Shown: in pieces, positions 5,597-9,827 of the stretch
Numbering within the stretch: position 1 is the first letter of the stretch
Layout of the letters: each line of letters begins with the position of its first letter
Sequence record: NC_014260.1
DNA: 64,000 nt
Reading direction: 5' to 3' (one strand)
Origin: Escherichia phage IME08
Program-made: the position numbers and the translations under genes
The notes under the pieces: generated by a model
What the model saw: the letters and a program-made list of their open reading frames with translations, nothing else
Database searches by the model: none
What the model was told of the DNA's origin: nothing

Positions 5597-5604
5597 TATA
5601 AATA
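5597..5604 (+). promoter_or_regulatory. late promoter TATAAATA (uvsW)
   Basis: Exact TATAAATA about 30 nt upstream of uvsW ATG. Confidence 0.6.
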
Positions 5605-5610
5605 TAACTA

Positions 5611-5618
5611 TATTTATA
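5611..5618 (-). promoter_or_regulatory. late promoter TATAAATA on minus strand (inh/hoc)
   Basis: Plus-strand TATTTATA; divergent partner of the uvsW late promoter. Confidence 0.5.
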
Positions 5619-5632
5619 ACTGAGAATTACTT

Positions 5633-7129
5633 ATGCAAATTCAAGTACATTTCGATAATTTTAGTCATGTTCGTATTGAGTGTGATGAATCCACATTCTA
5701 CGAACTCAGAGACTATTTTAGCTTTGAAGCTGATGGATATAAATTCAACCCTAAATTTCGTTATGGTCAATGGGACGGACGTATTCGCCTTCTGGATTAT
5801 AATCGTAAACTTCCTTATGGATTGGTTCCGCAGATTAAAAAATTCGCTGAACAATTTGAATACTCTCTGTGGATTGACCCACGTATTCTTGAACAGGAAG
5901 ATATTTCTCGTGAAGATTTTGACTCATGGGTGGCATCTCAAGAAATTTATTCAGGGTCTACCAAGATTGAGCCCCATTGGTATCAGAATGAAGCCGTATA
6001 CAACGGTCTAACAAAACGTCGCGCAATTCTGAATTTACCTACATCTGCAGGTAAATCATTAATCCAGGCGCTCCTGAGTCGATACTACGTTGAGAACTAT
6101 GAAGGTAAAATTCTTATCTTAGTTCCTACTACTGCACTCGTTGACCAGATGATTAATGACTTCATCGATTATCGGTTGTTCCCTAAAGCCGCAATGCTTG
6201 GAATTCGTTCAGGTACTGCTCGTGATTCTGATGCAATGATTTACGTTTCGACTTATCAAACTGCTATTAAGCAACCTAAAGAATGGTTTGCTCAGTTTGG
6301 TATGTTTATGAACGATGAATGTCATTTGGCTACAGGTAAATCTATTTCTACCATCATCGAAGGCCTAACCAACTGTATGTTTAAATTCGGTTTGTCTGGT
6401 TCTTTAAAAGATGGTAAAGCTAATTTAATGCAATATATGGGTTTGTTTGGTGATGTGTTTAAACCTGTTTCCACCTCCCAATTGATGGAAGAAGGACAGG
6501 TTACAGACCTTAAAATCAACAGTATTTTCCTTCGATACCCAGACGAATTCACTGTTAAGATGAAAGGTAAAGATTACCAATCAGAAATTAAAGTCATTAC
6601 TAAGGCTACTCGTCGTAATAAATGGGTTGCTAATTTAGCTGTTAAACTCGCTAAGAAAGAAGAGAACGTATTCCTGATGTTTAAAAACATCGAACACGGT
6701 AAAACTCTTTTTGAAATGGTTAAAGAGCAACATAAAGAAGTTTATTACGTATCAGGTGAAGTTAATACCGAAACGCGTAATGCTCTGAAAGTAATGGCGG
6801 AAAATGGTAAGGGTATTATTGTTGTGGCAAGTTATGGTGTGTTCTCTACTGGTATTTCTGTTAAGAACCTTCATCACGTTGTATTTGCTCACCCAGTAAA
6901 ATCCAAAATCATTGTACTCCAGACAATTGGTCGTGTACTCCGTAAACATGCTTCCAAATCAACAGCGCAAGTATGGGATATCATCGACGACATGGGTGTT
7001 AAGCCTAAATCAGCTACGGCTAAAAAGAAATATGTTCATTTGAACTACGCCCTCAAACACGCTTTAGAACGTATTCAACGTTATGCTGATGAGAAATTTA
7101 ATTACGTAATGAAACAGGTGGATTTATGA
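5633..7129 (+). CDS. uvsW: UvsW DNA/RNA helicase
   Basis: 498 aa; SF2 helicase motifs (PTSAGKS Walker A, DECH box); T4 position. Confidence 0.9.
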   Translation: MQIQVHFDNFSHVRIECDESTFYELRDYFSFEADGYKFNPKFRYGQWDGRIRLLDYNRKLPYGLVPQIKKFAEQFEYSLWIDPRILEQEDISREDFDSWVASQEIYSGSTKIEPHWYQNEAVYNGLTKRRAILNLPTSAGKSLIQALLSRYYVENYEGKILILVPTTALVDQMINDFIDYRLFPKAAMLGIRSGTARDSDAMIYVSTYQTAIKQPKEWFAQFGMFMNDECHLATGKSISTIIEGLTNCMFKFGLSGSLKDGKANLMQYMGLFGDVFKPVSTSQLMEEGQVTDLKINSIFLRYPDEFTVKMKGKDYQSEIKVITKATRRNKWVANLAVKLAKKEENVFLMFKNIEHGKTLFEMVKEQHKEVYYVSGEVNTETRNALKVMAENGKGIIVVASYGVFSTGISVKNLHHVVFAHPVKSKIIVLQTIGRVLRKHASKSTAQVWDIIDDMGVKPKSATAKKKYVHLNYALKHALERIQRYADEKFNYVMKQVDL

Positions 7130-7353
7130 AAACCTTTAAAGAAGTTATTCAGGAAGCATCTATTGAAAGCTTCATGTCTAAAATTAGTTCGTGTCAGACC
7201 ATGGAAGGTCTGGAGGAATTAGAGAAGTATTACAAAACTCGTAGTAAGGAAGCCGAACTTCGTGATTCGGATGATATCAGCGTACGCGATGCATTGGCTG
7301 GTAAGAGAGCTGAATTGGAGTCGATGGACGACGAGGAAGAGGAAGATTTCTAA
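7126..7353 (+). CDS. uvsW.1: UvsW.1 small acidic protein
   Basis: 75 aa, ATGA-overlapped with uvsW stop; acidic C-terminus DDEEEEDF. Confidence 0.6.
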   Translation: MKTFKEVIQEASIESFMSKISSCQTMEGLEELEKYYKTRSKEAELRDSDDISVRDALAGKRAELESMDDEEEEDF

Positions 7354-7361
7354 ACAAAAAA

Positions 7362-7383
7362 GGCCCAACCTTTCGGAAGGGCC
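7362..7383. terminator. hairpin terminator after uvsW.1
   Basis: GGCCC…GGGCC stem with inner CC/GG pairing, directly after stop. Confidence 0.5.
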
Positions 7384-7413
7384 AATAACCATAAAATGGC
7401 TATACACACTAGA

Positions 7414-7581
7414 CTAAATTAATAATTGGGTTTCGTTCAGCTGTTCTTCAGTGTTTTCCGTAACCGGCAAGCTTTGAACGTAATTATAGCATGGACCCGG
7501 GTGAACCGGACCTTTTTCTGTTTCAACAACCAATGCAGCATCGATTGGAGTTTTACAGACAACGCAAATCTTATCTGACAT
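7414..7581 (-). CDS. small Cys-containing protein (CxxC…C), hypothetical
   Basis: 55 aa MSDKICVVCKTP…GPCYNY…; strong RBS AAGGAGA 7 nt upstream of ATG; not in the supplied ORF track (<60 aa). Confidence 0.4.
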   Translation of the reverse strand: MSDKICVVCKTPIDAALVVETEKGPVHPGPCYNYVQSLPVTENTEEQLNETQLLI

Positions 7582-7609
7582 GATTGTCTCCTTAGTTTAA
7601 CTTACATAT

Positions 7610-8308
7610 CTATTTATTAGCCAAATTCTTTTCAAATGTTTTAACCATATAACCTACATCTAAATCAGGAAATCCATTCTCAACTATTATGCGTTGAAAT
7701 TTCCTTCTTTTAGGCATTCCTTCCTTTATCCAAAGTTCACGGATTTCCTTTTCAAATTCCCATAATTTACTTCTCATAGAAAGCTTAGGCTGTGAATGTT
7801 TACCTATATGGGCCTCATTAGCCTCTTTGGTACGTTTCTTACCTAATTTGGCTAATGACATAGCTTTTTTAGCTTCTTCTGTATGAGAATATGGATTTCT
7901 TTTATGACCCGCACTTATGGCTTGTTTGGTGGATTCAGACCTTGGAATACCTCGTATTTTCGACGCACTCTTTTCAATAGATTCAGGAGAACGAGTAGTA
8001 CAACTACCTCCTTCACCACCAGGTTTCATATTCATACAGCGAATACCTTTACCAAACTTATCCCAAGCCTCTTCTATCAAAAGCTCTTCGAATTCATAAG
8101 CAAGTTGTTCGGTATCGAAAAAAGTCCTATCGACTATTTCAATTCGGTATTTTAATCTTTTTGCATAATAGATGTAATTACCAGACCCTACATACTTGTC
8201 AGATATTTTATCAGAAGAATGCTTACCAAAATATCGCCTAGTTCCGTTAGGCGAGTATACTAAAGTTTGGTAGCACATATGGTACTTTTTATTTTTCACC
8301 TGCTTCAA
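7610..8308 (-). mobile_element. free-standing homing endonuclease-like gene (seg-like, degenerate GIY-YIG N-terminus with NUMOD-like basic repeats)
   Basis: 232 aa; N-terminal LVYSPNGTRRYFGKHSS…YVGSG resembles GIY-x10-YIG; Ser/Lys-rich repeats (SxxxKxxISxxHKxNP, AKKAMSLAKLGKK) as in I-TevI/Seg DNA-binding regions; overlaps uvsY 3' end. Confidence 0.5.
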
Positions 8309-8726
8309 ATTTCCTGAGCTCCAACATATTCTTTAATGAGAAACCTCTGGCTTTGACTGCGTCTAAAGCCGAACTACAGAAGTCCTGTAATAAAGCCCAA
8401 TACTGGATTGACGTATCGATTTTAATTACACTAGAATCTGCAGCCATTACGGTCTTTAATTCAGACTTCTCATATTGGTCCATACAAACCTCATCACCAG
8501 GCTCTCCACGTCCCGTGTAGAAATCTAATCGCTTCTTAAGTGAGGTCTTTTTCTGGATTTCTAATCTCATTATTTCTTTCTTACAATTCGTATACAGTCT
8601 TAGCCATTTGCTGTGCAGCAAAACGTTGTTCTGTACTTCATACTGTAAACGAGTCCCATCAATCTTCAAATCTTCATCCAAAGCATCTTGAAACGACTCT
8701 AATTTATATTCAATCTCTTTACTCAT
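8289..8726 (-). CDS. uvsY: UvsY recombination mediator
   Basis: Start at internal ATG (MSKEIEY…); TRLQYEVQNNVLLHSKWL and C-terminal GFSLKNMLELRKFEAG match recalled T4 UvsY. Confidence 0.85.
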   Translation of the reverse strand: MSKEIEYKLESFQDALDEDLKIDGTRLQYEVQNNVLLHSKWLRLYTNCKKEIMRLEIQKKTSLKKRLDFYTGRGEPGDEVCMDQYEKSELKTVMAADSSVIKIDTSIQYWALLQDFCSSALDAVKARGFSLKNMLELRKFEAGEK

Positions 8727-8784
8727 CGCATGTTTCCTGTGTAATAACCATAGGACCATTATACACTATTCATTTGAACAGCAA

Positions 8785-9174
8785 TTAACCACTCTGGGAG
8801 AGCTGAATTCTAATTTGCTCTAATGTATCCGGGTCATCAACGATACTAAACTGAACAGTCACGATAATCGAGTTATCATCGTACACAGGTGTCACACCTA
8901 CAGCCAGGGCAGAAATTCTGGGTTCGAAGTTCCGCACAGCGGAAACTATATTACGCTTAATGGTGTCTGTGATTAATGGAGTAATATTCTCAAACAATTG
9001 GTTGCTGATGTCACAACCGAATTCAGGCATAAAAGGGCGTGAACCTTTGCGAGTAGTAATAATACCTAACAAGCTATTTTTTACTGCACGAGCGCCTATA
9101 GCTTTAGCAACGTCTCTATTCCAAGACGTCCTCATTTCAGGGTCTAAATCCGAATACATTTTATTGATATTCAT
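8785..9174 (-). CDS. 25: baseplate wedge subunit gp25
   Basis: 129 aa; MNINKMYSDLDPEM…GIITTRKGSRPFMPEFGCD matches recalled T4 gp25. Confidence 0.9.
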   Translation of the reverse strand: MNINKMYSDLDPEMRTSWNRDVAKAIGARAVKNSLLGIITTRKGSRPFMPEFGCDISNQLFENITPLITDTIKRNIVSAVRNFEPRISALAVGVTPVYDDNSIIVTVQFSIVDDPDTLEQIRIQLSQSG

Positions 9175-9797
9175 TACATCACCTTAAAGAACTCTTTAAG
9201 TCCCTCAATAACGTGGACAGTATGTTCACCACATTCACAAGAAATAGGTATGGCCAAAATAGGCTTAGGGGCAACTAGTGCATCATAAACTTCTTTTATA
9301 TCTTTTTCTGTTATCACAGAATAAAGGTCATCAAGTTCCACATCGCTTAAATCTGAAAGAAAAAGCTTTTCGCCTGTAGAAGTTAAAATATAATCGATAC
9401 ACCCTGCGACCATCATAGCCCTATTTTTATCTTCAAAGAGTTTAGGGTATCTGAAAACAATTTTAAAGTTGCCAAAGTCTTTAATAACATCAGGCTCTTT
9501 ACCCAATGTTGCGCGAGTTAGTGTCATAGGGACAACCTGTGAGCGACCACAACTACAAACCCACTCACGTTCTATATTCACTTCAGCTAATGAATGGGCC
9601 CACAGGTTTATCACTAGGAGCTCAGATTCTTGCTTGTTTAAATCACGAGCATCTGTGCAATTCGAAATGAGTTCATTGATAAAGGACTCTATTCTGCCTT
9701 CTAATTTAGCTTGGAGCAAGTCCTTATACTCTCTGAGGGTAAATGCTCTGCATTTTATGGTTTTGTTTTTAATTTTTACGTCAAAAGTATAATTCAT
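9174..9797 (-). CDS. 26: baseplate hub subunit gp26
   Basis: 207 aa, position and size as T4 gp26. Confidence 0.75.
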   Translation of the reverse strand: MNYTFDVKIKNKTIKCRAFTLREYKDLLQAKLEGRIESFINELISNCTDARDLNKQESELLVINLWAHSLAEVNIEREWVCSCGRSQVVPMTLTRATLGKEPDVIKDFGNFKIVFRYPKLFEDKNRAMMVAGCIDYILTSTGEKLFLSDLSDVELDDLYSVITEKDIKEVYDALVAPKPILAIPISCECGEHTVHVIEGLKEFFKVM

Positions 9798-9815
9798 TGT
9801 CTTCTCCTTTAAGCT

Positions 9816-9823
9816 TATTTATA
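9816..9823 (-). promoter_or_regulatory. late promoter TATAAATA on minus strand (gene 26)
   Basis: Part of palindromic TATTTATAAATA shared with the gene 51 promoter. Confidence 0.5.
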
Positions 9824-9827
9824 AATA
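9820..9827 (+). promoter_or_regulatory. late promoter TATAAATA (gene 51)
   Basis: TATAAATA about 20 nt upstream of ATG 9848, RBS AAGAGG between. Confidence 0.55.

Follow-up and report, generated by a model that had tools for sequence, protein, structure and literature searches.

A predicted Seg-like GIY-YIG homing endonuclease gene at the uvsY/uvsY.-2 junction of Dhakavirus phages

RESULTS

Escherichia phage IME08 carries, between the recombination mediator gene uvsY and uvsY.-2, an open reading frame (ORF) that very likely encodes a free-standing homing endonuclease of the GIY-YIG family and the T4 Seg type, predicted to be active. Judged by the criteria tested here, its product falls into the Seg-type class of free-standing GIY-YIG enzymes, as a distinct lineage. 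We found no paper in the literature describing this homing endonuclease gene (HEG). The window analyzed is a 64,000-nucleotide stretch of the IME08 record (NC_014260.1); it comes from a Dhakavirus, a JS98-like T4-type coliphage, and its positions 6600-9300 are 99.3% identical to phage vB_EcoM_IME341 (IME341) and 97.2% identical to vB_EcoM_IME281 (IME281).

The ORF is unbroken across positions 7610..8308 of the minus strand (232 amino acids [aa] from a TTG at 8308) and is the sole long ORF at the locus. Read from a GTG at 8299, the HEG spans 7610..8299 (minus strand, 229 aa, stop codon at 7610-7612). Its upstream neighbor is uvsY (8289..8726, minus strand; Pfam UvsY, 5e-53), and its downstream neighbor is uvsY.-2 (7414..7581, minus strand; Pfam DUF2685, 1e-28). 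ORFs and Pfam matches also place uvsW (5633-7129) and uvsW.1 (7126-7353) on the plus strand and gene 25 (8785-9174) and gene 26 (9174-9797) on the minus strand. The sequence-only reading had proposed a 232-aa ORF (7610-8308) at the site of the small T4 ORFs next to uvsY. The ORF is real, the motifs quoted for it are present and conserved across a 60-sequence family alignment, and its location corresponds to the T4 uvsY.-1 position: uvsY.-2 is retained, and HEG-less Dhakavirus relatives have a 32- to 34-aa ORF there.

The HEG is free-standing; it lies between uvsY and uvsY.-2, outside any detected intron, and Rfam gave neither a group I intron nor any other relevant match in positions 6900-9300. 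Searched with the family HMM, the rest of the window gave no paralogue. RAGATH-33 (RF03102) matches below the Rfam threshold, over the full model length, at 7159-7269 (plus strand), inside the uvsW.1 coding sequence (33.6 bits versus a gathering score of 120.4; E 1.8e-4). The uvsY gene is annotated as 144 to 145 aa in relatives. Its mechanically called ORF in the window (8289..8759) adds 11 codons (MVLWLLHRKHA, 8727-8759, minus strand) ahead of the start used in relatives (MSKEIEY at 8726), and this extension is probably not translated.

Three GenBank phages carry a close copy of the gene. In IME281 the product is named "putative endonuclease" and begins at the GTG. In IME341 and FB the ORF is fully intact, but the annotated coding sequence is shortened to 141 aa (L007:1511-1936) and 177 aa (L005:1510-2043), respectively, and labeled "hypothetical protein." The gene is therefore misannotated in two of the three records.

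We next consider the family assignment, with residues numbered on the 229-aa form. PHROG 314, annotated "homing endonuclease," matches residues 5-170 (E 5.5e-17). With the HEG protein itself as query, Pfam returned no GIY-YIG match (PF01541 or PF19835) at E ≤ 1 and only a sub-threshold NUMOD3 match (E 0.089); NCBIfam and a phmmer search against the PDB gave no match, and Foldseek gave no significant one. HMMER, run exhaustively over 1.84 billion representatives, recovered 1,607 relatives at E ≤ 1e-3, with only the protein's own 50% cluster below 1e-30. A family alignment of 60 sequences, including the window protein, was matched by Pfam NUMOD3 in 44 members, SegE_GIY-YIG (PF19835) in 16, GIY-YIG (PF01541) in 14 (both GIY-YIG counts at E ≤ 0.01), and I-TevI_DNA-bd in 3. 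Aligned by hhalign, the family profile matched I-TevI with 93% probability (E 3.3e-7); the I-TevI sequence used was checked against PDB entries 1MK0, 1LN0, and 1I3J. Judged from the alignment, the missed curated GIY-YIG profiles reflect divergence, not absent motifs. The PHROG and I-TevI matches, together with the Pfam matches among relatives, bear out the nuclease family proposed from sequence alone; the opposite picture, no nuclease profile and an ORF conserved in all relatives, is contradicted on both counts.

GIY-YIG superfamily proteins carry the "GIY" and "YIG" motifs within the N-terminal portion of an approximately 100-aa domain (PMC1564403). The predicted catalytic domain of the HEG product covers residues ~6-99 (8003..8284, minus strand), with Y10 in the GIY position, Y23-F-G25 as the YIG motif, the metal-binding E71, and N90; the layout is C-Y10-Q, 11 residues, and then Y23-F-G25. 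By hhalign, Y10 pairs with I-TevI Y6, Y23 with Y17, E71 with E75, and N90 with N90. Residues G25, Y36, G38, G40, E71, and N90 occur in all 60 family members, and Y10, Y23, H27, S39, G94, and G95 each occur in 59. Two motifs mark the clade within this domain, K26-H27-S28 and D34-x-Y36-x-G38-S39-G40. The sequence-only reading had described a degenerate GIY-YIG N terminus; the motifs are indeed present and conserved, but the GIY tyrosine lies in "CYQ" and not in "LVY." We rejected the "LVY" tyrosine, which is not conserved; the equivalent residue is Y10 in "MCYQT," aligned with I-TevI Y6.

The superfamily also has a conserved arginine at the center of the domain (I-TevI R27; PMC1564403). I-TevI helix 1 (DFEKRWKRH), which carries R27, was left unaligned by hhalign and treated as an insertion. 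At the candidate positions in the HEG family (K47/R48, also given as 48/49), K or R occurs in only ~65% of relatives, against 59 of the 60 members for H27 and all 60 for Y36. The AlphaFold2 (AF2) model built from the alignment is confident (mean pLDDT 89.9) and shows a GIY-YIG fold, with the catalytic domain an alpha/beta structure of a three-stranded sheet with flanking helices.

Downstream of the catalytic domain, AF2 helices and the Pfam matches of relatives define four NUMOD3-like helices at residues ~104-169 (7793..7990, minus strand). The helices themselves (105-115, 122-134, 141-151, and 158-168) each begin with an S/T-x-E motif and are spaced 17 to 19 residues apart. NUMOD-like repeats had also been noted from sequence alone, and this holds: four such helices are present in the model, and the 44 alignment members that match NUMOD3 do so with a best E of 1e-28, the HEG product itself staying below threshold. 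By hhalign, residues 137-158 pair with the minor-groove helix of I-TevI, and profile searches of the PDB (with 9 or 60 sequences) returned only a weak match, to the I-TevI DNA-binding domain 1I3J (E 0.033). The region is presumed to be an extended DNA-binding linker. It is followed by a predicted C-terminal helical DNA-binding domain at residues ~173-229 (7613..7783, minus strand), with a homeodomain/Myb-like three-helix core. A zinc finger is absent; the 229 aa contain three cysteines (C9, C88, and C100), scattered rather than clustered.

Three codons are candidate starts: TTG 8308 (232 aa), GTG 8299 (229 aa), and ATG 8278 (222 aa). They imply overlaps with uvsY of 20 nucleotides (nt), 11 nt, and none, respectively. 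The TTG is the least supported of the three as the likely start; its codon is TCG in metagenome contig L008, which encodes a 72%-identical homologue, while the GTG and the ATG are conserved in all carriers, L008 included. GTG 8299 is favored because the codons between it and the ATG differ between the window and L008 by synonymous or conservative changes (AAG to AAA, CAT to CAC, and TAC to TTT) and because homologues have a similar K-K-[YF]-H lead-in ahead of the first strand. ATG 8278 is favored by precedent, since the T4 seg genes start with AUG (PMC2988022). From these comparisons, GTG 8299 or ATG 8278 appears likelier than TTG 8308. The 20-nt overlap with uvsY read earlier from the sequence therefore holds only for the TTG, the least supported start, and an overlap of 11 nt or none is likelier; nor can the overlap be taken as expected of a mobile insertion, since overlap by itself does not mark a mobile gene and since its extent is uncertain.

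Inspection of the sequence revealed no well-spaced Shine-Dalgarno sequence before any of the three starts. The only candidate for the 229-aa form is AGGAAATT. Poorly spaced or missing Shine-Dalgarno sequences are common among the T4 free-standing endonuclease genes (PMC2988022). The predicted RNA fold of the initiation region (8225-8335, minus strand) does not exceed shuffled sequence in stability (z -0.5), and sequestration of the ribosome-binding site is therefore unsupported. Scans for sigma-70 promoters and terminators gave counts at chance level, and no T4 late-promoter motif TATAAATA lies near the HEG. Expression is probably low, by read-through from uvsY transcripts, and translation probably initiates at GTG 8299 or ATG 8278 through coupling to uvsY termination.

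Two further features of the surrounding sequence were observed. A terminator-like hairpin (8234-8254, minus strand), with a 7-bp stem followed by TATTTTGG, lies within the HEG coding sequence, 24 nt downstream of ATG 8278; its stem is weakened in FB. Late-promoter motifs stand back to back, with TATAAATA on each strand, at 5597-5618, in the divergent inh/uvsW junction, and at 9816-9827, in the divergent gene 26/gene 51 junction.

The gene is sporadic among close relatives. A homologue of >60% identity occurs in 5 of 50,697 phage records, representing the three phages IME341, IME281, and FB; among the 51 records with flanks at least 90% identical, these 5 hold the HEG and the other 46 do not. 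A word-indexed protein search returned only two close relatives, IMG/VR returned only IME341 and IME281 themselves, and a metagenome scan added one FB-like fragment. All eight independent copies (IME341, IME281, FB, and L025, L024, and L008 to L010 from SRA and metagenome assemblies) sit at the uvsY/uvsY.-2 junction. The L008 phage is only ~75% identical at the DNA level and has no close isolate.

Comparison with genomes lacking the insert, which the sequence-only reading had recommended for locating the target site, confirmed that the HEG is not a conserved gene and allowed its boundaries to be mapped by alignment. The HEG-specific segment is ~657 bp (7624..8280, minus strand). In the HEG-less phages JS98, KIT01, UGJNEcP3, AnYang, MX01, QL01, dhabil, and PSD2002, it is replaced by ~85 to 90 nt that code for most of the 32- to 34-aa ORF. 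On the left, homology picks up again at the uvsY stop codon plus "GTAC," and on the right at TAATAAATAG; the uvsY.-2 ribosome-binding site (AAGGAG) and the TAATAAATAG junction have the same sequence in HEG+ and HEG- genomes. The small ORF of the HEG-less relatives starts at the uvsY stop codon in an ATGA overlap. It was observed between uvsY and uvsY.-2 in L001, L002, L016 to L019, L003, and L020, is unannotated in JS98, and comes in two variants, MRRTKNTKPIKVDA... (32 aa) and MSYRKPVINKCPKPSK... (34 aa), with the common C terminus ...QEFINAALASNK (QKFINAALASNK in PSD2002). Relative to the T4 catalogue (PMC2988022), the uvsY/uvsY.-2 junction is a new site, at which homing is predicted.

The 3' end of uvsY, its last 60 to 70 nt, is sharply dimorphic. 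Alignment of HEG+ and HEG- genomes distinguishes haplotypes A and B, the latter being present in the window (8289..8350, minus strand); they differ by ~20 substitutions in 60 nt, with several amino acid changes, and encode the C termini ...FNLKTMHEMRQFEAGK and ...FSLKNMLELRKFEAGEK, respectively. Haplotype B is found in all HEG+ genomes and in the noncarriers KIT01 and UGJNEcP3, and haplotype A in six HEG-less genomes. Haplotype B holds AGGAAATT, 8 nt, and then GTG, and both elements are kept in L008; haplotype A has neither AGGA nor GTG. This arrangement is a putative weak Shine-Dalgarno sequence and start for the HEG, which suggests that its expression signals may be embedded in uvsY and travel with the gene. 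The fixed flank differences between HEG+ and HEG- genomes are confined to 8366 and 8337 within uvsY and to the junction itself, with none found on the uvsY.-2 side, in a comparison of three carrier genomes, too few to call a target or immunity site. With only these positions and the junction fixed, self-immunity would most simply follow from replacement of the small-ORF segment.

A more specific proposal is that the target lies in the last ~60 nt of uvsY, that the dimorphic 3' end is the footprint of the HEG, and that haplotype B is a cleavage-immune allele carrying AGGAAATT-8 nt-GTG and co-converted with the gene. We regard this as possible but rather unlikely. If true, the HEG rewrites the C terminus of the recombination mediator on which its own homing depends and has persisted at this site across genus-level divergence.

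The HEG is under purifying selection, with a dN/dS of about 0.1. Its ORF is intact in every carrier, and dN/dS is 0.10 relative to FB (41.5 synonymous and 21.5 nonsynonymous differences) and 0.08 to 0.16 relative to L008. Comparison of the window with IME281 shows a HEG much younger than its flanks. The HEG and ~100 bp on each side form a low-divergence tract shared by the two genomes (7502..8369), with 6 mismatches in 868 bp versus 108 in the other 2,833 bp of positions 6100-9800. The HEG has a dS of 0.037, compared with 0.289 in uvsY and 0.214 in gene 25 (Fisher P of about 8e-6), making it ~6 to 8 times less diverged than its flanks. The tract is a candidate recent transfer or short co-conversion tract. 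The HEG had been proposed from sequence alone to explain mosaicism around uvsY and uvsW; the low-divergence block is compatible with this but is not specific proof, because the whole region is mosaic and low divergence is not unique to the HEG tract. Relative to FB, dS is 0.39 for the HEG, 0.40 for uvsY, and 0.43 for gene 25, and the divergence of the HEG from FB and from L008 equals that of the flanks; part of its history therefore looks vertical.

DISCUSSION

We compared the HEG with the endonucleases that it most resembles. SegA to SegG are free-standing GIY-YIG homing endonucleases that mediate "intronless homing." Like their genes, the HEG is free-standing and wedged between conserved phage genes, is sporadic among close relatives, and adjoins a DNA metabolism gene. 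The proteins share an N-terminal GIY-YIG domain with Y-x-G-K-H-S...D-G-Y-x-G-S-G, NUMOD3 modules, and a C-terminal helical domain, and relatives at 28 to 31% identity are annotated as SegA-like and match Pfam SegE_GIY-YIG. Unlike the T4 genes, however, the HEG product shares at most ~40% identity with homologues from outside its lineage and forms its own 50%-identity cluster. Its site lies outside the seven T4 seg sites, which include those of segA (uvsX), segE (uvsW), segG (gene 32), and segF (gene 56), and it may start with GTG in place of their AUG (PMC2988022).

Likeness to I-TevI of the T4 td intron (PDB 1LN0, 1MK0, and 1I3J) extends to the aligned Y, Y, E, and N residues, the modular order of catalytic domain, extended linker, and DNA-binding helices, and one NUMOD3-like helix aligned with the I-TevI minor-groove helix. 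In contrast to I-TevI, the HEG is not intron encoded, has no zinc finger, and lacks a counterpart of helix 1 (R27) in the alignment, and its C-terminal domain seems closer to the homeodomain/Myb type than to the I-TevI helix-turn-helix. The closest outside homologues (34 to 40% identity over the full length) are the genes between gene 25 and uvsY in KIT01 and Klebsiella phage vB_KpnM_VPA32. These Seg-like genes likewise adjoin uvsY, with an 11-nt overlap with its coding sequence, but they lie on its other side, encode 195 to 197 aa, and have only one NUMOD3-like module.

By analogy with SegA, SegE, SegF, and SegG and with I-TevI (PMC2988022; PMC1564403), the enzyme would act during coinfection by a carrier and a HEG-less phage. 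Through its C-terminal modules it would bind a long asymmetric site, and its N-terminal domain would cut the HEG-less allele in or near the uvsY 3' end, the small ORF, or the uvsY.-2 5' end. Repair by the phage UvsX/UvsY/gp32 recombination machinery, with the carrier genome as template, would then copy the HEG in and co-convert nearby markers. Carriers would be immune through replacement of the ~85-nt small-ORF segment and possibly through the haplotype B changes in the last 60 nt of uvsY.

The same nuclease might be no purely selfish element but kept for a benefit to the phage, such as exclusion of competitor markers or local recombination or amplification, a reading to which we assign a low probability. 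A dN/dS of 0.08 to 0.16 across flanks only ~75% identical points to maintenance for longer than a simple gain-decay-loss cycle predicts, SegB is reported to promote amplification of anti-defense loci (PMC13096335), and nuclease genes are reported at the boundaries of phage genetic exchange (PMC10055350). However, the HEG is missing from ~90% of close relatives and is therefore dispensable, its neighbors, core genes for recombination and the baseplate, have no known role in defense or anti-defense, and purifying selection is likewise expected of a homing-competent HEG.

It is less probable still that the HEG is a vertically inherited accessory gene, lost in most Dhakavirus lineages and no longer mobile, with its patchiness due to deletion and ordinary homologous recombination. 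The equal dS values of the HEG and its flanks relative to FB, the distant L008 copy at the same site, and the presence of haplotype B without the HEG in KIT01 and UGJNEcP3, which is compatible with loss, fit such a history. Against it, the HEG-less alleles are no simple deletion and have a different conserved small ORF in two variants, the window and IME281 differ far less in the HEG than in its flanks, and the catalytic residues are intact. Finally, although the protein gives no direct match to the curated GIY-YIG models, hhalign identified no central arginine, and GenBank gene callers shortened the coding sequence in IME341 and FB, a degenerate, catalytically dead remnant, retaining DNA binding only or functionless, is highly implausible given an ORF intact in every carrier, the low dN/dS, Y10, Y23, E71, and N90 in 59 or 60 of the 60 family members, and a confident model with a GIY-YIG fold.

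Other homing endonuclease genes occupy nearby slots in sister phages (L003:1027-1809 in UGJNEcP3, L020:827-1522 in PSD2002, L024:1133-1687, L002:2026-2619 in KIT01, and L006:2489-3076 in VPA32): an HNH- or NUMOD3-bearing gene between uvsW and uvsW.1 and a Seg-like gene between gene 25 and uvsY. Metagenome contig L024 has two homing endonuclease genes at once in the uvsW-gene 25 stretch. Together with the HEG, these genes mark the 3-kb uvsW-to-gene 25 stretch as a homing endonuclease hot spot.

As an active, free-standing Seg-type homing endonuclease, the reading that we favor, the HEG adds both a lineage and a site to a T4-type catalogue that already has uvsX, uvsW, gene 32, and gene 56, and it represents a clade that the curated Pfam and NCBIfam profiles miss. 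The uvsW-gene 25 hot spot probably shapes local mosaicism in the Dhakavirus phages, which are isolated as phage therapy candidates.
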